DNA of 64,000 bases from sequence record PQ368571, one strand, 5' to 3'. This stretch comes from Escherichia phage ELT3. Below the pieces are notes generated by a model. The model was not told the origin of the DNA. It ran no database searches and worked only from the letters and a program-made list of their open reading frames with translations. Both the position numbers and the translations under genes were made by a program. This document shows positions 32,574 to 41,829 of this stretch, piece by piece (positions within the stretch are counted from its first letter, which is position 1; each line of letters opens with the position of its first letter).

Positions 32574-34056
32574 TATCATTAATCAGCTTGCAGCAACAGA
32601 CAAAACATCGCTGAAAGAAAAGATTCTGAAAGAATCCGCGAGCAATGAAACGCTGAAAGAATGCTTTTATCTGGCATATTGCAAACAGGTTACGTTTGGC
32701 GTAAAGAAATACGATAAACCGTCTCGCTATTCGTCTGTATTGTCTTTATCCGGTGCATTACAGGTCTTTAAAAATAAACTTGCCACGCGTCAAGTAACTG
32801 GTAATGCAGCATTACAGCTAGTTACCGATACTCTGACTTGCTTGTCAGAAGATGATGCTAAAGTTGCAATGATGGTCCTGAATCGTGATCTGGAATGTGG
32901 TTGTTCCGCTACTACTGCAAACAAGGTATGGAAGAAACTGATCCCCCAGCAGCCGTGCCACCTTGCATCGTCATGTTCTGATAAGACTATTGCTAATATC
33001 AAGTATCCGGCGTATGCACAACTTAAAAGCGATGGCGCTCGTGGTATGGCTGATATTGACGGGGAAACATTAGCAATCTATACCCGCTCAGGTAATACCT
33101 ATCAAGGGCTTGATGATTTGTTTGCGGTTTTAGAGCGTCTACGAGGACGTGGAATTGTTCTAGATGGCGAATTGGTATATATGCCTACCCTTTCGCAAAC
33201 ACCAGCGCAGAACTTCGTTGAAAGCGTTTATGATGGTACTCTGTCATGGATATTTGAAGAAGAGGAAATGCCATTAACGCCAGTAGCGGAAGCAGTGAAA
33301 GAATCCGTTGTTGCAGATCGTCAGACCGGAAATGGTATCCTCAACAAATCACTTAAAGGAACTATTCCAAAAGAAGAAGCCCAATGTATTGTTTACACTG
33401 TCTGGGATGTTATCGACCGTGATGTGTATTACGGAAACGAGAAAGCAACGAAGCAATATAAAGATCGATTCGAAGAACTAAAACAGATTGTTGAAGAACT
33501 TAACGATCCTCGTGTTCAGATCATCGAAAACACTGTAGTTAACAATATCGATGAAGCTCGCGAAGTATATCATCGTTATGTCAACATGGGCTTAGAAGGT
33601 ATTATCCTTAAAAATTTACATGGTGTATTTGAAGATCGCCGTAGTAAAGATCAGGTTAAATTTAAAGAAGTGATTGACTTCGACGCGGAAATTGTTGATG
33701 TATATCCGCATAGTAAAGACCCCAATAAGGTAGGCGGTTTTACTGTCCGTAGTGCGTGCGGACGAATGATGACTAACACCGGATCGGGATTAACCGACAC
33801 TACAACCGAAAAAGGTGATGATGGTACTGAACGTGTAATTCCGTTCGATCGTCGAAATGAACTCGACCGAGAAATGTTATGGGCTGACCGTCATAACCTG
33901 ATTGGAAAAGTTATTGAGATGACATGCAACGGGTATATCCGCAGCAAATCACGTAAAGAAGATGAACCGGAGTTCTCTTTATTTCTCCCGATCATCAAAC
34001 GTATTCGATACGACAAGACCACTGCAAATACAGTAAAAGAGGTATTCGATGTGTGA
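32554..34056 (+). CDS. 30: ATP-dependent DNA ligase
   Basis: 500 aa; similarity to T4 ligase as recalled (TGNAA, MMVLNRDLECG, adenylation motif AQLKSDGAR, DGELVY, LEGIILKN, FLPI..R.R.DKT.ANT). Confidence 0.9.
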   Translation: MKMSILNIINQLAATDKTSLKEKILKESASNETLKECFYLAYCKQVTFGVKKYDKPSRYSSVLSLSGALQVFKNKLATRQVTGNAALQLVTDTLTCLSEDDAKVAMMVLNRDLECGCSATTANKVWKKLIPQQPCHLASSCSDKTIANIKYPAYAQLKSDGARGMADIDGETLAIYTRSGNTYQGLDDLFAVLERLRGRGIVLDGELVYMPTLSQTPAQNFVESVYDGTLSWIFEEEEMPLTPVAEAVKESVVADRQTGNGILNKSLKGTIPKEEAQCIVYTVWDVIDRDVYYGNEKATKQYKDRFEELKQIVEELNDPRVQIIENTVVNNIDEAREVYHRYVNMGLEGIILKNLHGVFEDRRSKDQVKFKEVIDFDAEIVDVYPHSKDPNKVGGFTVRSACGRMMTNTGSGLTDTTTEKGDDGTERVIPFDRRNELDREMLWADRHNLIGKVIEMTCNGYIRSKSRKEDEPEFSLFLPIIKRIRYDKTTANTVKEVFDV

Positions 34057-37152: not shown

Positions 37153-37435
37153 TATTATGTTCAAAGTAGGTGATAAGTTTATTCTTAGTCGTGATATTAT
37201 CCCTAATCTGAAAGGTTGTATCATCAATCCTAGTAAAAATTCATGGTTTTATCTGTTTATCGACGACAAACTGAATGTACGCGCCGAATATAAAGAAGGT
37301 CTTCGCACTGGCCTCGGTTTCTTTAACGATCACGATCATAGCCATTGGCTAAACGGTGGATTCGAAGCAACGGTGCTCGCGGTTGATGTGACCTACACAA
37401 ACATCATAGAAAAATATCAAAAAATTATTTTATAA
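37142..37435 (+). CDS. HxHW-family small protein (member 4)
   Basis: HDHSHWLNGGFEATVLAVDV motif. Confidence 0.55.
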   Translation: MRTNIMFKVGDKFILSRDIIPNLKGCIINPSKNSWFYLFIDDKLNVRAEYKEGLRTGLGFFNDHDHSHWLNGGFEATVLAVDVTYTNIIEKYQKIIL

Positions 37436-37441
37436 AAAGTG

Positions 37442-37516
37442 TTGACATAAGATCGGGTGTATAGCATAATACACCCATCGAAACGAGATACACTTTCTAA
37501 CTAGGAGAATCAAATT
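37442..37516 (+). promoter_or_regulatory. PeSL-like early promoter cassette (stem-loop gggtgtatagcataatacaccc)
   Basis: TTGACA at 37442, -10 CATAAT at 37465. Confidence 0.65.
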
Positions 37517-37804
37517 ATGGCATACATCACCATCACTCTGAAAGTTAACAAATTTGCTCACGCTGCACACGAAACCGATAATGCAATCCGTAACAACAAG
37601 TTCGCACGTCTGGTACGCGATGCGGTAGCTAAAGAGTTCAACTTCAAATTTGCCGATGGTAAAGTTATCACTAAATGGACTCATGACGGCGAAACTAAAG
37701 TAGAACTTGCTGACAACTTCGCAAATCAGGAATATGCACACCGTCGCATTAATGAAATTATCAGCGATGAACTCTACTACGGTGTACAGGAAGGACTGTT
37801 TTAA
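37517..37804 (+). CDS. hypothetical protein (95 aa)
   Basis: ORF after cassette; terminator downstream. Confidence 0.5.
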   Translation: MAYITITLKVNKFAHAAHETDNAIRNNKFARLVRDAVAKEFNFKFADGKVITKWTHDGETKVELADNFANQEYAHRRINEIISDELYYGVQEGLF

Positions 37805-37809
37805 TATAC

Positions 37810-37829
37810 GGGGCGTTAAGCCCCTTTTC
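37810..37829 (+). terminator. Intrinsic terminator
   Basis: ggggcgttaagcccc followed by tttt; same hairpin sequence at 41830. Confidence 0.6.
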
Positions 37830-37852
37830 ATCCAACTATTGAGGATAATACT

Positions 37853-38161
37853 ATGAAAGATAATATCTTTGAATTTACCCGCGAAAATCTCCCAATGTTC
37901 CGAAAGTCTCTGCTTAAGCTAGAGAACAGCAATTACGATGTATATTTTTACATCACCGAAGATCTAGAGATCCTTTACGCTGATTACCCAGGTCCGATTC
38001 GTACCTTCGAAGAAGCATCGCAGTATAAAAATGTTCACGGTCATGAGCACTGGTTACGAGAAAACCCAGGTCGCAAGAAAGCACGCGTTAAAGTGCTGGC
38101 GATTGACATAACACCAGCATACGCCGACCGGATTGCACAGAATGATTATTTGTCTAAATGA
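37853..38161 (+). CDS. HxHW-family small protein (member 5)
   Basis: HGHEHWLRENPGRKKARVKVLAIDI motif. Confidence 0.55.
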   Translation: MKDNIFEFTRENLPMFRKSLLKLENSNYDVYFYITEDLEILYADYPGPIRTFEEASQYKNVHGHEHWLRENPGRKKARVKVLAIDITPAYADRIAQNDYLSK

Positions 38162-38168
38162 TTTTATT

Positions 38169-38194
38169 AGCCGACCTTAGTGTCGGCTTTTTTA
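38169..38194 (+). terminator. Intrinsic terminator
   Basis: agccgaccttagtgtcggct followed by tttttt. Confidence 0.65.
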
Positions 38195-38218
38195 TTGCAT
38201 AAAATTTTAAAAAAGGCA

Positions 38219-38287
38219 TTGACACCAGATCACGCCTATAGCATAATACACACATCGAAACGAGATACCACTTAGGAGAATCAAACA
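38219..38287 (+). promoter_or_regulatory. Early promoter cassette (TTGACA-N17-CATAAT) with conserved leader
   Basis: -35 at 38219, -10 at 38242. Confidence 0.6.
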
Positions 38288-38557
38288 ATGGCACTGACTA
38301 AAACCACTACCAACTTTGCAAAACGTCACGGCTTCGACCTTGAACTCAATAGCTTTGAAGATTACACTCTTCTGTGTGTATATGAAATCGAAAATGATTG
38401 CGAGTGGATGTTCAGCTATCGCGTAAACGAAGACGGATCTTTCACTTGGAACGGAAATATCTATCTTGCACAGGAAGTAAAAGAAGAACTTCCGGCGACT
38501 ATCAAAGATGAGAAACATTTACGTCAAGTTTTAAAATTTATTTCTGAAAATATCTAA
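38288..38557 (+). CDS. hypothetical protein (89 aa)
   Basis: ORF after cassette. Confidence 0.5.
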   Translation: MALTKTTTNFAKRHGFDLELNSFEDYTLLCVYEIENDCEWMFSYRVNEDGSFTWNGNIYLAQEVKEELPATIKDEKHLRQVLKFISENI

Positions 38558-38564
38558 AAAGTTG

Positions 38565-38626
38565 TTGACACCAAAGTAAGAACATAGCATAATACACCCA
38601 TACCGAAACGAACTGGAGAATCAAAA
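38565..38626 (+). promoter_or_regulatory. Early promoter cassette (TTGACA-N17-CATAAT) with conserved leader
   Basis: -35 at 38565, -10 at 38588. Confidence 0.6.
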
Positions 38627-38908
38627 ATGAAATTCATCAAAGCAACCGAAATCCTGAAAAACAAAGAAGCATACATCGGAAACATCGTTGGTATGAACAT
38701 TCGCGGTGCTGGTAGCCAGTGGACCAAACTGGTTGATGTTAAAGCTAAAGGCGATAAAATCGAGTTCACTGTAAAAATGCTTACTCATAACGCACATATG
38801 GGTATCAAGACAAAAACGATGGCAGCAGATAAAAGCATCAACTATCAAGATCTGGGCGATTGGCTGAACTGGTGCAAAATGCACAACATCGAAACTAATC
38901 ACGAATAA
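38627..38908 (+). CDS. hypothetical protein (93 aa)
   Basis: ORF after cassette. Confidence 0.5.
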   Translation: MKFIKATEILKNKEAYIGNIVGMNIRGAGSQWTKLVDVKAKGDKIEFTVKMLTHNAHMGIKTKTMAADKSINYQDLGDWLNWCKMHNIETNHE

Positions 38909-38922
38909 TTTTAAAAAAGTTG

Positions 38923-38984
38923 TTGACGGGGATCGGGAGATCCCCTATAATACACACATACCGAAACGAAATAGGAGAATCAAA
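38923..38984 (+). promoter_or_regulatory. PeSL-like early promoter cassette (stem-loop ggggatcgggagatcccc)
   Basis: TTGACG at 38923, -10 TATAAT at 38946. Confidence 0.65.
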
Positions 38985-39152
38985 ATGTTCGAGACTAAAG
39001 CAGCATGTGAAGCATATATCATTGAAACCTACGGTGAAGATTATCTGAAATTTGACATTGTAGTAGCACAGAAGATTGTAGGGATGGTTGCGAAATACCT
39101 CGGAGTTAAAGAAGGTTACTATCCTAGCAACGCACCAGAAATTAACAAATAA
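38985..39152 (+). CDS. small protein (55 aa), near-identical paralog of 35729..35896
   Basis: Duplicated gene including its promoter cassette. Confidence 0.55.
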   Translation: MFETKAACEAYIIETYGEDYLKFDIVVAQKIVGMVAKYLGVKEGYYPSNAPEINK

Positions 39153-39166
39153 TTTTATAAAAAGTG

Positions 39167-39235
39167 TTGACAGGGGAGGATAACTCCCCTACAATACAAC
39201 CATCAAGACGAGATACCACTTAGGAGAATCAAACA
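39167..39235 (+). promoter_or_regulatory. PeSL-like early promoter cassette (stem-loop ggggaggataactcccc)
   Basis: TTGACA at 39167, -10 TACAAT at 39190. Confidence 0.65.
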
Positions 39236-39487
39236 ATGGCTAACATCGAAACCGCAAAGAAAATCGCTAAAGACCTGAACGTTAAAGGCTTCCGTAAACT
39301 GAAATTACAGCGTGTACGCTACACCATCGGCAAACAGTGCTCTTTCATGAGCGAAGAAGTTGCTAACAGCCTGATTGATAACCTGATTGCGGCTGGCTGG
39401 GAAGTTGCGGATCTGAAAACTTGCCGCGAACTGGCTAACAAAGGTCTTTTAGATTCTGTTACTATCAAACCAATGGGGGCAGCGTGA
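39236..39487 (+). CDS. hypothetical protein (83 aa), first gene of a translationally coupled operon
   Basis: ORF after cassette; stop overlaps the next start. Confidence 0.5.
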   Translation: MANIETAKKIAKDLNVKGFRKLKLQRVRYTIGKQCSFMSEEVANSLIDNLIAAGWEVADLKTCRELANKGLLDSVTIKPMGAA

Positions 39488-39729
39488 AAAGAAAATTAAT
39501 TAAACGCAATAAGGAATTTCTTAATAACTGCATTAAGGCCGCTAATGGTTGGCCTTTGTGCCTCTTCCTTTATGATTGGTATTCTAAACAATCGGTTGAG
39601 GAAGCACGACACTATAAGAAGATCAGAAAAGAATCACACACAAAACAAGGTCGCATTAACGGACTTTACTTAATGTGGCACGGTAAAGAACCGACTAAAA
39701 TCTGTGCTGGGTTAAAGGGTCGTATATGA
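39484..39729 (+). CDS. hypothetical basic protein (81 aa)
   Basis: ATGA overlaps on both sides. Confidence 0.45.
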   Translation: MKRKLIKRNKEFLNNCIKAANGWPLCLFLYDWYSKQSVEEARHYKKIRKESHTKQGRINGLYLMWHGKEPTKICAGLKGRI

Positions 39730-40442
39730 AACAAAAATTAATATTCTGCAACTTTGACGGATCGGGGATAATGGGGCTAGAATGGGCTAAAGCAGGTCAT
39801 AAGGTAGTCTGCTTTAATGCGGATGACGCCGACCACGGTACATACAAAAAGTATAATACCAGATTTGAACATCCAAACATTACCTATGTAAACACATGGA
39901 TTGATTTGAACTGGCTGGAAAGAGCAATGGACCTTGAATGGGGGAAACCGGATATTATCTTTGCATTCCCACCGTGCACCAATTTAGCTGTTAGTGGCGC
40001 TGCGCACTTTGAACGAAAGAAACGAGAACAAGGACCATTGATTCAAGTTCATGATGTACGGGCAGCTAAAATAACCGCTTATTTGGGTGAATGGCTCGGA
40101 GTTCCCTACATGATAGAGAATCCTGTAAGCGTTATCTCTAGCATGTGGCGTAAGCCTGATTACATGTTCCATCCGTGGGAATATGGCGGTTATTTGCCGG
40201 AAGATGATAAGCATCCTACGTTTCCTGAGTATATTGCCGCCCGTGATATGTACCCGAAAAAGACTTGCTTATGGACCGGACAAGGCTTTATAATGCCAGA
40301 AAAGAAACCGTTGCAGATTAATAAAGGGTACAGTAAACAGCATTCTAAGCTAGGCGGGAAAGGAACGAAAACAAAGACTATAAGGTCACTTACCCCGCGA
40401 GGATTCGCAAAGGCAGTATTTGAAGCAAATAAGGATCTATAA
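39726..40442 (+). CDS. C5-cytosine methyltransferase-like catalytic-core protein (238 aa; no obvious target-recognition domain)
   Basis: Motif I-like FCNFDGSGIMG, motif IV-like FPPCTNLAVSGA (Pro-Cys), motif VI-like IENPVSV. Confidence 0.4.
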   Translation: MKQKLIFCNFDGSGIMGLEWAKAGHKVVCFNADDADHGTYKKYNTRFEHPNITYVNTWIDLNWLERAMDLEWGKPDIIFAFPPCTNLAVSGAAHFERKKREQGPLIQVHDVRAAKITAYLGEWLGVPYMIENPVSVISSMWRKPDYMFHPWEYGGYLPEDDKHPTFPEYIAARDMYPKKTCLWTGQGFIMPEKKPLQINKGYSKQHSKLGGKGTKTKTIRSLTPRGFAKAVFEANKDL

Positions 40443-40771
40443 TGAGATTGTTTAAGTATTCGCTAACGTCAAATTACGATAAACAAGGTCATTGCATCCG
40501 TTGCCCTGATTGTCATAGCCATAACATCGAAAGCAAGATCACCGATCATATTGATGGACTTTGGTCGCCAGCAAGTGAAATAGAATACTATTGCGCTGAT
40601 TGTGGAATTGTAGTAGCATATTGGGCATACGGATCATATGATCCATACTTCCAGATGGGAGAGCGTTCAATCCCTGCTCTTATCTGGAGAATTAAGAACA
40701 ACATCCGCCATTCATGGGATGAGTTCTTAAAAGATATTGATTTACGTGATGATCCATTCAGGAGACTATAA
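40442..40771 (+). CDS. zinc-ribbon protein (109 aa)
   Basis: CIRCPDC...CADCG paired CxxC motifs. Confidence 0.45.
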   Translation: MRLFKYSLTSNYDKQGHCIRCPDCHSHNIESKITDHIDGLWSPASEIEYYCADCGIVVAYWAYGSYDPYFQMGERSIPALIWRIKNNIRHSWDEFLKDIDLRDDPFRRL

Positions 40772-40772
40772 C

Positions 40773-41291
40773 ATGAACCGTTTAACGCCTAAACGCCGTT
40801 ACTATACCAATACTAAAAACTTTGTCATCTCTGTTTATGATGCATGGTTAGAAGATGGCTATATCAACATGAACCCAGATTATCAGCGTCCTTTAGTATG
40901 GGACACCGAAAACAAACGTATGTTTATCGAAAACCTGATTAATGATTTTCCGGTTGGTGCTATCGCAATGGCTAAGATTGATGATGGCTCTCGCTATGAG
41001 ATCGAAATCGTGGACGGTAAACAGCGTTTAAACGCAATATTCTCCTTTATGAAGGATGAGTTTAGCATTGCTTGTAATGATGATTCTATGTTGTATTACA
41101 GTGATTTTACGCCAGCAGAAAAGCGACGTTTCCGAAATCTCGGACTACCCGCGATCATGATGGAAGAGAGCACACGAGAAGACCGATTAGAGTATTTCTA
41201 CAAAACAAACTTTTTCGGTGTGCCTCAATCGGAAGAACATCGCCAGCATGTGATTGCCCTATTGCAAGATGAGCAATTAAAAAATAACTAA
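40773..41291 (+). CDS. DUF262 (ParB/Srx-like NTPase domain) protein
   Basis: DYQRPLVW and IVDGKQRLNAI motifs (DUF262 hallmarks (Y)QR..VW and DGQQR). Confidence 0.5.
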   Translation: MNRLTPKRRYYTNTKNFVISVYDAWLEDGYINMNPDYQRPLVWDTENKRMFIENLINDFPVGAIAMAKIDDGSRYEIEIVDGKQRLNAIFSFMKDEFSIACNDDSMLYYSDFTPAEKRRFRNLGLPAIMMEESTREDRLEYFYKTNFFGVPQSEEHRQHVIALLQDEQLKNN

Positions 41292-41299
41292 AAAATTTG

Positions 41300-41360
41300 T
41301 TGACAGGGGATCATCGATCCCCTATAATACACCCATACCGAAACGAAAGGAGAATCAAAC
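41300..41360 (+). promoter_or_regulatory. PeSL-like early promoter cassette (stem-loop ggggatcatcgatcccc)
   Basis: TTGACA at 41300, -10 TATAAT at 41323. Confidence 0.65.
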
Positions 41361-41540
41361 ATGAAACAATTAACCATCGAATCGGCAATCATCGCAATCG
41401 CTAAAGTTCAAGCGGCTTATAATTGCACTGACATTGAAGCCATTTCAAAAATGCAAGCAGAAGCCGCAAAAGCAGGTGACGAGAAATCTTTAGATGTTCT
41501 CTGCGAAATCAAAGCAGAATTAATTTCAAAAATGTTCTAA
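41361..41540 (+). CDS. hypothetical small protein (59 aa)
   Basis: ORF after cassette. Confidence 0.45.
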   Translation: MKQLTIESAIIAIAKVQAAYNCTDIEAISKMQAEAAKAGDEKSLDVLCEIKAELISKMF

Positions 41541-41545
41541 AAGTT

Positions 41546-41611
41546 GTTGACATAACAGAGGGTGTATATCATAATACACCCATACCGAAACGAACTACTA
41601 AGGAGTATCAA
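41546..41611 (+). promoter_or_regulatory. PeSL-like early promoter cassette (stem-loop gggtgtatatcataatacaccc)
   Basis: TTGACA at 41546, -10 CATAAT at 41570. Confidence 0.65.
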
Positions 41612-41824
41612 ATGGCTAACATCGAAATCATCATTACCGACGTAACTTATGACCGCATTAACGAAATCGGTACTGCATTACTGGAAGATGGAACAACTCG
41701 TACCATCAACTACGCAGAATACGTTGAAATGCGTGGTTGTATTAAACGAGTAGGAAAATATATCCTGATTGAAAAAGACTATTCAGGATACACCTTAGAG
41801 CAATTGCTTGATGGTGCATTATAA
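41612..41824 (+). CDS. hypothetical protein (70 aa)
   Basis: ORF after cassette; terminator downstream. Confidence 0.5.
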   Translation: MANIEIIITDVTYDRINEIGTALLEDGTTRTINYAEYVEMRGCIKRVGKYILIEKDYSGYTLEQLLDGAL

Positions 41825-41829
41825 TAAAT

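Follow-up and report, generated by a model that had tools for sequence, protein, structure and literature searches.

We found that the operon at positions 39236–41291 of a 64,000-nt stretch of Escherichia phage ELT3 (PQ368571; hereafter the window) is probably a single early accessory cassette running from one PeSL element to the next, carrying an orphan Dcm-like, putatively anti-restriction methylase, and that the zinc-ribbon and DUF262 proteins encoded beside it are probably independent of the methylase and not co-evolving with it. This reading rests on the operon anatomy, the predicted folds, the catalytic residues, the lack of linkage between the genes in other genomes and the demonstrated activity of a methylase homologue with 56% identity.

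Five coupled genes lie between two PeSL elements

The window belongs to Krischvirus, with 98–99% identity to RB49, Phi1 and JEP8, and the five plus-strand ORFs of the operon correspond to RB49 ORF190, 189.1, 189, 188 and 187 (annotated as RB49p190, p189.1, p189, p188 and p187; Table 1). Among the loci fetched for comparison, the ORF190 homologue was present in two Krischvirus loci only. An earlier note made from the sequence had described the five as chained, and all were recovered where it had placed them. Read from the sequence, the GTG of ORF189.1 (39484) overlaps the ORF190 stop (TGA, 39485–39487; GTGA), the methylase ATG (39726) overlaps the stop before it (TGA, 39727–39729; ATGA) and the zinc-ribbon ATG (40442) shares a base with the methylase stop (TAA, 40440–40442; TAATG), while a 1-nt gap separates the zinc-ribbon stop (TAA, 40769–40771) from the ATG of the DUF262 gene (40773). 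A purine-rich, Shine–Dalgarno-like stretch lies 6–9 nt 5′ of each start. The length of 184 aa previously given for the DUF262 protein arises from an upstream TTG (40737); read from the ATG, 40773–41291 encodes 172 aa, and homologues begin at the MNRL of this ATG, which points to the shorter form. The GC content rises mildly over the methylase gene (0.44 versus ~0.39), which is uninformative as to a foreign origin.

Table 1. Features of the cassette, in window coordinates.
Feature	Position	Strand	Details
PeSL (5′)	39152..39216	+	sigma-70 TTGACA 39167–39172, TACAAT 39190–39195; repeat family D2
ORF190 homologue	39236..39487	+	83 aa; 100% identical to RB49p190; phrog_14908, E 5e-59
ORF189.1 homologue	39484..39729	+	81 aa, GTG start; phrog_7065, E 4e-38
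ORF189, compact orphan Dcm-like DNA (cytosine-C5) methyltransferase, predicted	39726..40442	+	238 aa
ORF188, 4-Cys zinc-ribbon protein	40442..40771	+	109 aa
ORF187, stand-alone DUF262 (GmrSD N-terminal, ParB/Srx-fold) protein	40773..41291	+	172 aa
PeSL (3′)	41273..41349	+	TTGACA 41300 ... TATAAT 41328, stem GGGGATC/GATCCCC; repeat family D1

The 5′ PeSL drives the operon. Its promoter (TTGACA-17-TACAAT, 39167–39195) matches the sigma-70 consensus at 11 of 12 positions, and the 17-nt spacer is itself a stem-loop (GGGGAG-GATAA-CTCCCC, 39173–39189); no promoter with 11–12 of 12 matches was found within the operon, in agreement with the single PeSL promoter proposed earlier. The 3′ PeSL, which carries a 12/12 promoter (41300–41328) directly after the last stop codon, marks the 3′ boundary, serving as terminator or attenuator of the operon and as promoter of the next cassette. 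Experiments in RB49 and phi1 have demonstrated that PeSLs act both as promoters and as terminators (PMC2839356); their terminator function and their role as promoter-plus-terminator cassettes that form units of shuffling are also documented (PMC2839356, PMC4122927).

The PeSL repeat family has seven copies between 37427 and 41596, and the interval from 39152 to 41273 is the longest cassette. The PeSL and ORFan cassettes described in the hyperplastic regions of RB49 and phi1 (Arbiol 2010; Comeau 2014) come from the same phage group, and there, as here, promoter–stem-loop elements flank non-essential early genes. Compared with the neighbouring cassettes of the window, each with a single gene in 250–780 nt, this one is unusually long, with five genes in ~2.1 kb.

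The 238-aa product is a compact cytosine methyltransferase by motif and fold

Judged from its motifs and predicted structure, the 238-aa protein is a compact C5-cytosine methyltransferase of a known, widespread phage family. The motifs that had first suggested this class are present, namely FCNFDGSG (F8-D11GSG, motif I), FPPC84TNLAVSG (motif IV) and IE131NPVSV (motif VI). Across 58 diverse homologues, C84 of the Pro-Cys motif and E131 are invariant and N132 is kept in at least 90%; motif I, here F8-x-x-D11-G-S-G, has the family consensus LFDxTG, with L9 its only near-invariant residue. K178/K179 and R220 are also conserved. The AlphaFold2 model has a seven-strand Rossmann-like core. As anticipated from its length, the protein has no separate target-recognition domain (TRD); ~60 aa of conserved loops (about 150–179 and 186–213) occupy the TRD position, after the final strands of the core and before the helices of the C terminus.

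It was fold comparison alone that placed the 238-aa protein, its closest folds being solved C5-methyltransferases. PF00145 scored 15.7 bits against a cutoff of 22, below its gathering threshold and over residues 10–100 only. Searches of the PDB by sequence, with the protein alone or as a family profile, returned no significant match (M.HaeIII at E 0.69 with the profile). Membership of the methylase family therefore rests on the fold, the motifs and a characterised homologue. The family comprises 7,314 clusters at 90% identity and 1,153 representatives at 50%; about 1,520 phage records contain it, and proteins of about 200–260 aa make up nearly all of the members listed. That neither catalytic residue (Cys or Glu), nor many a further position, varies in so large a family indicates that purifying selection acts on an active enzyme.

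Canonical C5-methyltransferases (PF00145; M.HhaI, M.HaeIII, E. coli Dcm and RB16p119) are about 90–240 aa longer. Relative to them, the phage protein lacks the TRD small domain and any recognisable QxRxR or GNxV motif, has ENP rather than ENV in motif VI and remains sub-threshold in Pfam. Its identity to the catalytic domains of DNMT3A and DNMT3B is only 12–17%, and those eukaryotic enzymes form DNMT3L-assisted tetramers with regulatory domains.

A homologue of the methylase modifies DNA and triggers a retron

K42 Dcm, the product of a 711-bp gene, is reported to 5-methylate DNA and to trigger retron Ec86, an effect lost on mutation of C82/E128/K175/K176; 5mC was detected on msDNA by LC-MS with this enzyme, and escaper phages lose dcm (bioRxiv 10.1101/2023.08.16.553469). 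When a plasmid supplies K42 Dcm alone, 5mC on msDNA increases and the enzyme is toxic in the presence of the retron; its proposed CCWGG target was inferred rather than mapped, in work that used a dcm+ host (bioRxiv 10.1101/2023.08.16.553469). We found that the Dcm gene of G29-2 (Hanrivervirus), also 711 bp, is 94.7% identical in DNA to dcm of KarlJaspers, a published relative of K42, and that its product shares 56% identity with the window methylase over the full length (236 versus 238 aa). All four published catalytic or substrate residues are conserved, aligning with C84/E131/K178/K179.

The Dcm of K42 and KarlJaspers (Bas06; Hanrivervirus, Drexlerviridae), the trigger of retron Ec86 (Eco1), belongs to the same compact family as the window methylase. 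Both are DNMT3-like in their best structural matches and both are orphan genes of early regions; they differ in phage lineage (a T4-like myovirus for the window, a T1-like siphovirus for the K42 type) and in setting, the window gene lying inside a coupled operon of five genes and the G29-2 gene having a terminator after it. The Krischvirus enzyme, a Dcm-like methylase from the family that triggers retron Ec86, is probably active.

RB49 DNA is cut by HpaII and NheI (PMC4041780), and the enzyme is therefore not a non-specific methylase; for virion DNA, methylation in all contexts is ruled out, while the sensitivity to these two enzymes excludes methylation at CCGG and GCTAGC only. CCWGG is strongly under-represented in the window (26 sites versus about 72 expected), with CCSGG and GGCC equally depleted. 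The CCWGG depletion runs counter to the prediction of full self-protection at this site.

The neighbours are a zinc ribbon and a nuclease-less DUF262 protein

The 109-aa protein is, from its sequence, a 4-Cys zinc ribbon, as had been supposed. Its two CxxC knuckles (CxxC...CxxC) are formed by C21, C24, C51 and C54, all invariant in five homologues at 30–40% identity, while C18 is not conserved; WAYG, within a WAYGSYDP-like stretch, is invariant as well. Homologues with the four invariant cysteines occur in Nonagvirus, Felixounavirus, Jedunavirus and a Klebsiella phage, and the family is found in 292 phage records. The protein matches phrog_2993 (E 5e-34), annotated as of unknown function, and Pfam Zn_Ribbon_TF below the cutoff (E 5.6e-4); its profile gave no significant match in the PDB.

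ORF187 matches Pfam DUF262 (PF03235) at E 6e-20, has no further Pfam match and ends at residue 172, right after the DUF262 core. Its invariant motifs are Y37QR, D81GKQR and N146F-G-QS-H156 (NFxGVPQSxxH), and the previously noted DYQRPLVW and DGKQRL are present. By structure comparison it has the ParB N-terminal domain fold, with BrxU and SspE among its structural neighbours. The gene is followed by the 3′ PeSL and then a 59-aa ORF; no DUF1524/HNH signal was found in ORF187, ORF188 or the downstream genes, which excludes a split GmrS/GmrD system and is in keeping with the stand-alone protein that had been proposed. The ~300-aa genes that follow the DUF262 gene in KP15 and Mm5 likewise gave no nuclease Pfam match.

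With GmrSD-family type IV enzymes (GmrSD, BrxU, SspE and DndI), ORF187 shares the N-terminal DUF262/ParB-like nucleotide-binding domain and its motifs. Unlike these enzymes, which measure about 560–820 aa, the phage protein of 172 aa has neither the C-terminal DUF1524/HNH nuclease nor any of the intervening helical domains, and is therefore no restriction enzyme on its own. Some host DUF262-containing defence enzymes attack m5C DNA. A first word-indexed search returned only seven relatives and a profile was needed; the DUF262-only family occurs in 302 phage records, with a short form of about 160–195 aa in T4-like phages and prophages. Our best guess is that the protein acts as a nucleotide-dependent factor binding DNA or a defence protein in host takeover or counter-defence.

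The three genes are neighbours only in Krischvirus

Neither the zinc-ribbon nor the DUF262 gene lay within 5 kb of a methylase homologue in any of 80 independent metagenomic loci, and no neighbour family of the methylase recurred in more than 15 of them. Outside Krischvirus, no fetched locus had the three genes as neighbours. In the 10 phage genomes inspected, the DUF262-only genes (RB16, KP15, Mm5 and ST64B) and the zinc-ribbon genes (JenK1, VSe11, e270.1 and KLPPOU148) sit in unrelated contexts. Two genomes were checked in full, and both carry a DUF262-only gene: RB16 has no homologue of the window methylase and ST64B no C5-methylase at all. Same-sized ORFs upstream of the DUF262 gene in RB16 and KP15 proved unrelated to the zinc ribbon, which is thus not conserved at that position. 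ORF189.1 fared no better as a conserved partner of the methylase: it does not resemble the ORF that precedes the methylase gene in PTXU04, and it did not turn up in the 80 loci.

Within the genus, the five genes are retained together at ≥95% identity in every one of ~56 Krischvirus records, so a lineage-specific functional interaction is possible; in FL04 a further ORF separates the zinc-ribbon gene from the DUF262 gene, which reveals plasticity even here. We regard these two genes as accessory and unrelated, and not as components of a conserved module for DNA modification. The compact module of the earlier note is an arrangement of one genus. Nor is it undescribed, given that RB49 and its relatives carry annotations for these genes and that the methylase belongs to a very large family, in which a 56%-identical member differs little from the published and experimentally active K42 Dcm.

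Alternative readings of the cassette

On a rival view, the zinc ribbon and the DUF262 protein would join the TRD-less methylase in a three-part DNA-modification or anti-restriction machine, in which one or both partners supply DNA targeting or activation to the methylase. The translational coupling of the three genes on one transcript, their retention throughout Krischvirus and the missing TRD are consistent with this, and ParB-fold activators of phage DNA-modifying enzymes (thymine dioxygenases) offer a precedent (PMC13229309). Like ORF187, these activators of 5-methylpyrimidine dioxygenases are small phage-encoded ParB-fold proteins with no obvious DNA-binding domain that adjoin a DNA-modifying enzyme; they differ in having a PF02195 ParB domain, a C-terminal dimerisation domain and consistent co-location with the enzyme (PMC13229309), whereas ORF187 is of the DUF262 type and accompanies a methylase in one genus only. 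The 80 metagenomic loci speak against such a machine, as do K42 Dcm, which works by itself, the DUF262-only genes of RB16 and ST64B, the zinc-ribbon homologues that occur alone in Nonagvirus, Felixounavirus and Jedunavirus, and the FL04 insertion. We consider this reading improbable.

We also think it improbable that the DUF262 protein serves counter-defence as a decoy, mimicking host DUF262 enzymes (of the GmrSD/BrxU, SspE or DndI type) without a nuclease of its own, poisoning or titrating them and so shielding DNA methylated by its neighbour. A complete DUF262 core with YQR, DGKQR and NFxGVPQSxxH but no nuclease domain is what a decoy might look like, BrxU and SspE are among its structural neighbours, and the gene is found in the early accessory part of T4-like phage genomes and, in prophage ST64B, within the ea region. 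T4-like carriers also encode a C5-methylase, adjacent in Krischvirus and of canonical type ~22 kb away in RB16 and KP15, with matching host distributions. This co-occurrence at the genome level, however, counts for about two independent lineages, the DUF262-only gene of ST64B stands in a genome with no C5-methylase, and a dominant-negative action on host enzymes is pure conjecture. We see only a slim chance that the Krischvirus DUF262 protein, possibly with the zinc ribbon, was recruited either as a partner of the methylase (a nucleotide-dependent loader or activator for duplex access or specificity) or as a decoy against m5C-sensing restriction enzymes of the DUF262 type, such as BrxU/GmrSD. 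Were it a decoy, the cassette would combine modification with protection of the modification.

It is very unlikely that the 238-aa protein is not a DNA methyltransferase here, whether as an inactive relic, an RNA-acting enzyme like DNMT2 or an agent of non-methyl group transfer like Cx-SAM-dependent carboxymethyltransferases: the sub-threshold PF00145 score, the cutting of RB49 DNA by the m5C-sensitive HpaII and NheI and the coupling of the PTXU04 homologue to an Nmad5 ‘nucleotide modification associated’ gene would fit, but the family-wide invariance of the catalytic residues, the LC-MS detection of 5mC with the homologue and a fold comparison in which the DNA methylases DNMT3B, 3g7u and M.HhaI outscore RNA enzymes all oppose it, and the digests bear on two sites only.

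A proposed role for the cassette

On the reading that we favour, an orphan methylase with two independent neighbours, the five coupled accessory genes would have been assembled in this lineage within the hyperplastic region of the Krischvirus (RB49-like) genome. We infer the activity and specificity of the Krischvirus enzyme, its protective role and any role of its two neighbours. Following canonical C5-methylase chemistry, Cys84 of the Pro-Cys motif would attack C6 of a flipped-out cytosine and Glu131 of the ENP motif would protonate N3, with the methyl group coming from AdoMet bound in the N-terminal FxDGSG/acidic-loop pocket. In place of a TRD, the ~60 residues of conserved loops, including K178/K179, may contact the DNA, as in DNMT3A/B. 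Driven by a strong early promoter of the sigma-70 type, the enzyme is proposed to methylate replicating phage DNA at a short motif. Methylation would shield the otherwise unmodified cytosines of the phage from host restriction, the cost being that m5C-dependent defences and those of the retron Ec86 type could sense it. The zinc ribbon and the nuclease-less DUF262/ParB-fold nucleotide-binding domain would act independently, each being found alone in many unrelated phages.

Implications for RB49-like phages

The methylase is relevant to cytosine modifications that were recently reported, unexplained, for a single isolate of Krischvirus. When the reportedly modified isolate, SAP, was compared with the unmodified TB34, no variant was found between SAP positions 32862 and 42144, a segment that includes the operon at 39772–41827. 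As the two isolates are identical across it, the operon is not the explanation, and we rejected it as the origin of the reported 5hmC and gentiobiosyl-5hmC of SAP. Screens for counter-defence could reasonably include the short DUF262-only family and the phrog_2993 zinc ribbon, though neither stands out as exceptional.

Among T4 relatives, RB49-like phages are the textbook case of unmodified cytosine, and they serve as ‘unmodified DNA’ controls. A probably active Dcm-like methylase in these phages matters for interpreting both their nanopore assemblies and their sensitivity to restriction, to type IV systems and to retron defences.

Operon layout and previous annotation

The interval 39100-41400 matched 56 Krischvirus genomes over its full length at 98-99% identity, including vB_EcoM_011D4, JEP8, Phi1, GEC-3S and RB49. 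For RB49, RefSeq annotates these ORFs as RB49p190, p189.1, p189 ('DNA methyltransferase'), p188 and p187, with two small ORFs and then alt just downstream, while the record of phage W115 labels the ORF187 counterpart 'DUF262 domain protein'. The five genes were thus already catalogued.

Reading of the sequence gave the junctions, in 5'-3' order, as GTGA, ATGA, TAATG and TAA-C-ATG. Both flanking promoters contain a G/C stem-loop as their 17-nt spacer, the PeSL (promoter early stem-loop) architecture, and a promoter scan found none of comparable strength inside the operon. Coordinates, junction codons and scan bear out the earlier note's proposal of five chained ORFs behind a PeSL; its size of 184 aa for the last protein comes from an upstream TTG and is revised, as homologues begin at the ATG listed in the table. 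Seven PeSL copies lie within 37427-41596, and the operon is the longest inter-PeSL interval. At 38908-38985, RB49 ORF192 (477 nt) is absent between the ORF193 and ORF191 homologues, leaving one PeSL; this phi1-type, ORF192-less arrangement is the example of PeSL-mediated cassette loss given by Arbiol et al. 2010 (PMC2839356). Separately, PADLOC weakly matched residues 12-75 of ORF190 (E 2.6e-5) to the C-terminal part of RT_UG35, a defence-associated reverse transcriptase model.

Features of the operon (window coordinates) and the C5-methylase of RB16/KP15-type phages
Feature	Position	Strand	Remarks
Consensus promoter, operon 5' side	39167-39195	+	11/12 match
ORF190	39236-39487	+	ORF call; 83 aa
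ORF189.1	39484-39729	+	ORF call
ORF189, methylase	39726-40442	+	ORF call; 238 aa
ORF188, zinc ribbon	40442-40771	+	ORF call
ORF187, DUF262	40773-41291	+	ORF call; 172 aa from ATG 40773
Following consensus promoter	41300-41328	+	12/12 match
Canonical C5-cytosine methylase	RB16p119, L097:24010-24918 (RB16 locus); KP15 71747-72652		302 aa; RB16/KP15-group T4-like phages

The methylase belongs to a compact Dcm-like family

In a Pfam search, PF00145 matched only residues 10-100 of the 238-aa protein, below threshold (15.7 bits); PHROG 757 ('DNA methyltransferase') covers it end to end (E 8e-91). The very large family counts 7,314 clusters at 90% identity and, at 50%, 1,153 representatives, with members in 1,520 phage records; they are uniformly short and occur in Drexlerviridae, Webervirus, Dhillonvirus, Vequintavirinae and others. 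Across 58 diverse aligned homologues, Cys84 (FPPC) and Glu131 (ENP) are invariant, as are P133, P150, Y176, K178, T180, W183, P191 and R220. In a confident AF2 model (pLDDT 92.3, pTM 0.90), the core is a seven-stranded class I methyltransferase fold; the protein has no separate target-recognition domain, whose place is held by two conserved loop segments of ~30 aa each. The methyltransferase-like core lacking this domain, as originally proposed, therefore stands.

Experimental work on a homologue comes from the KarlJaspers-like phage K42, whose escapers from retron Ec86 lose a 711-bp dcm gene; K42 Dcm expressed alone is toxic only with the retron in the cell and raises msDNA 5mC as measured by LC-MS, and its C82A/E128A/K175A/K176A mutant is inert (bioRxiv 10.1101/2023.08.16.553469). 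In Hanrivervirus G29-2, the Dcm gene is likewise 711 bp long and shares 94.7% DNA identity with KarlJaspers dcm; the encoded protein and the window protein are 56% identical end to end, with C82, E128 and K175/K176 of the G29-2/K42-type Dcm aligning with C84, E131 and K178/K179. On the basis of this identity and these residues, the 238-aa protein is by sequence one more of the compact orphan Dcm-like enzymes encoded by phages, a known family with experimental support. Given this relative and the existing annotations, the locus can no longer be called undescribed.

Specificity and site depletion

The CCWGG specificity of K42 Dcm was assumed from the motif in msDNA (bioRxiv 10.1101/2023.08.16.553469). 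RB49 DNA is cut by HpaII and NheI (PMC4041780), which rules out an indiscriminate methylase. In the window (1-64000), CCWGG (26 observed, ~72 expected), CCSGG (11 and 34) and GGCC (27 and 70) each occur at about one third of Markov expectation; by the same comparison, no depletion is seen for GATC or GCTAGC. The pattern suggests that several GC-rich restriction sites are selected against despite the phage-encoded methylase.

According to a 2026 paper, Krischvirus SAP contains 5hmC and its glycosylated forms whereas the 99.96%-identical TB34 does not; no genetic cause was given. SAP (vB_Eco_SAP, OZ034687.1) carries the operon at 39772-41827, and the published SAP/TB34 variant table contains no difference between SAP positions 32862 and 42144. 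As this variant-free interval spans the operon, the operon is ruled out as the cause of the SAP phenotype. All eight single-nucleotide differences in the first 45 kb (2830, 5316, 11508, 15164, 19368, 21108, 31223 and 32862) affect the middle nucleotide of a CCCGG or CCGGG site of SAP, and the TB34 alleles (C to T, G to A) turn these into CCTGG or CCAGG; other differences are mostly 1-bp indels. Rather than true mutations, these differences seem to be systematic errors of base calling where CCWGG (Dcm-type) sites are modified. If so, one DNA preparation would carry m5C at CCWGG, placed by either the host Dcm or the phage enzyme.

The accessory proteins

ORF187 comfortably passed the PF03235 threshold (E 5.9e-20); in PADLOC, it matched defence proteins that contain DUF262, NsnA and PD-T4-2_A. 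All three DUF262 core motifs (YQR, DGKQR and N-F-x-G-x-x-Q-S-x-x-H) are invariant in its family, and AF2 predicts a ParB/Srx fold (pLDDT 93.1) closest to pNOB8 ParB-N, BrxU, PadC and SspE; a DUF262-only family profile found DndI, BrxU and SspE in the PDB. Profile, motifs and model confirm the stand-alone DUF262 identity: ORF187 lacks a nuclease half, and none is encoded adjacently. Its subfamily of short proteins (~160-195 aa) extends to T4-like phages (RB16-like, KP15-like, Yersinia JC221, Pectobacterium POP12 and Pantoea Phynn), Vibrio genomes and prophage ST64B.

ORF188 matched PHROG 2993 (unknown function) and, in Pfam, zinc-ribbon models only, all sub-threshold; a PDB search by sequence detected no solved relative. 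Homologues occur in 292 phage records, chiefly Krischvirus, Nonagvirus/Seuratvirus-like and Felixounavirus. Across five compared homologues (30-40% identity), C21, C24, C51 and C54 and the W-A-Y-G of a WAYGSYDP-like stretch are invariant, and the four cysteines back the zinc-ribbon call. ORF188 and ORF187 are real accessory proteins.

Gene linkage is confined to a lineage

The proposal that methylase, zinc ribbon and DUF262 protein form one modification or anti-restriction module found no support. Among 80 independent IMG/VR loci with a methylase homologue (flanks up to 5 kb per side), none carried a homologue of any of the other four operon products (ORF190, ORF189.1, ORF188 and ORF187), and clustered neighbour families reached at most 15 loci, the recurring ones being ordinary phage genes. 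The methylase gene is followed by a terminator in G29-2 and adjoins a helicase in Dhillonvirus. In phage PTXU04 (L008:3196-3849), its translation is coupled to that of a 217-aa protein with Nmad5 (nucleotide modification associated domain 5; PF18757, E 1.9e-24), which hints that some family members feed a further base-modification step. On a 152-kb metagenomic phage contig (L003:6498-7313), an HNH_3 gene lies upstream of the homologue and, on its downstream side, the second gene encodes a SIR2-domain protein. Neighbours are likewise unrelated around the DUF262-only genes of RB16, KP15, Mm5 and ST64B and the zinc-ribbon genes of JenK1, VSe11, e270.1 and KLPPOU148. Same-sized ORFs upstream of DUF262 in RB16/KP15 are not homologous to the zinc ribbon, and the complete RB16 genome encodes neither it nor a window-type methylase. 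In Krischvirus FL04 (L095:1875-2054), an extra 59-aa ORF with overlapping stop/start codons separates the zinc-ribbon and DUF262 genes.

That the genes are partners in this lineage only, or that the DUF262 domain decoys m5C-sensing enzymes of the DUF262 type (BrxU, for example), is improbable but keeps some standing because all Krischvirus records retain the five genes together, a canonical C5-methylase lies ~22 kb from the DUF262-only gene in the RB16-/KP15-type phages that have it, and a ParB-fold activator was recently demonstrated for another class of phage DNA-modifying enzyme (PMC13229309). In the phage collection, the DUF262-only gene and that canonical methylase have nearly the same spread over hosts (Klebsiella, about 115-118 records; Enterobacter, 19-20; Cronobacter, 13-14; Citrobacter, 11-12). 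However, this support amounts to about two independent lineages, and it is contradicted by ST64B, which has the DUF262-only gene and no C5-methylase of any kind.

The adjacency of the methylase, zinc-ribbon and DUF262 genes is thus lineage-specific. In RB49 and phi1, PeSLs act experimentally as strong promoters and efficient terminators, and the ORFs they flank have been inserted, deleted and exchanged through them (PMC2839356; PMC4122927). The lineage-specific adjacency fits this documented PeSL-mediated mosaicism of the genome region.
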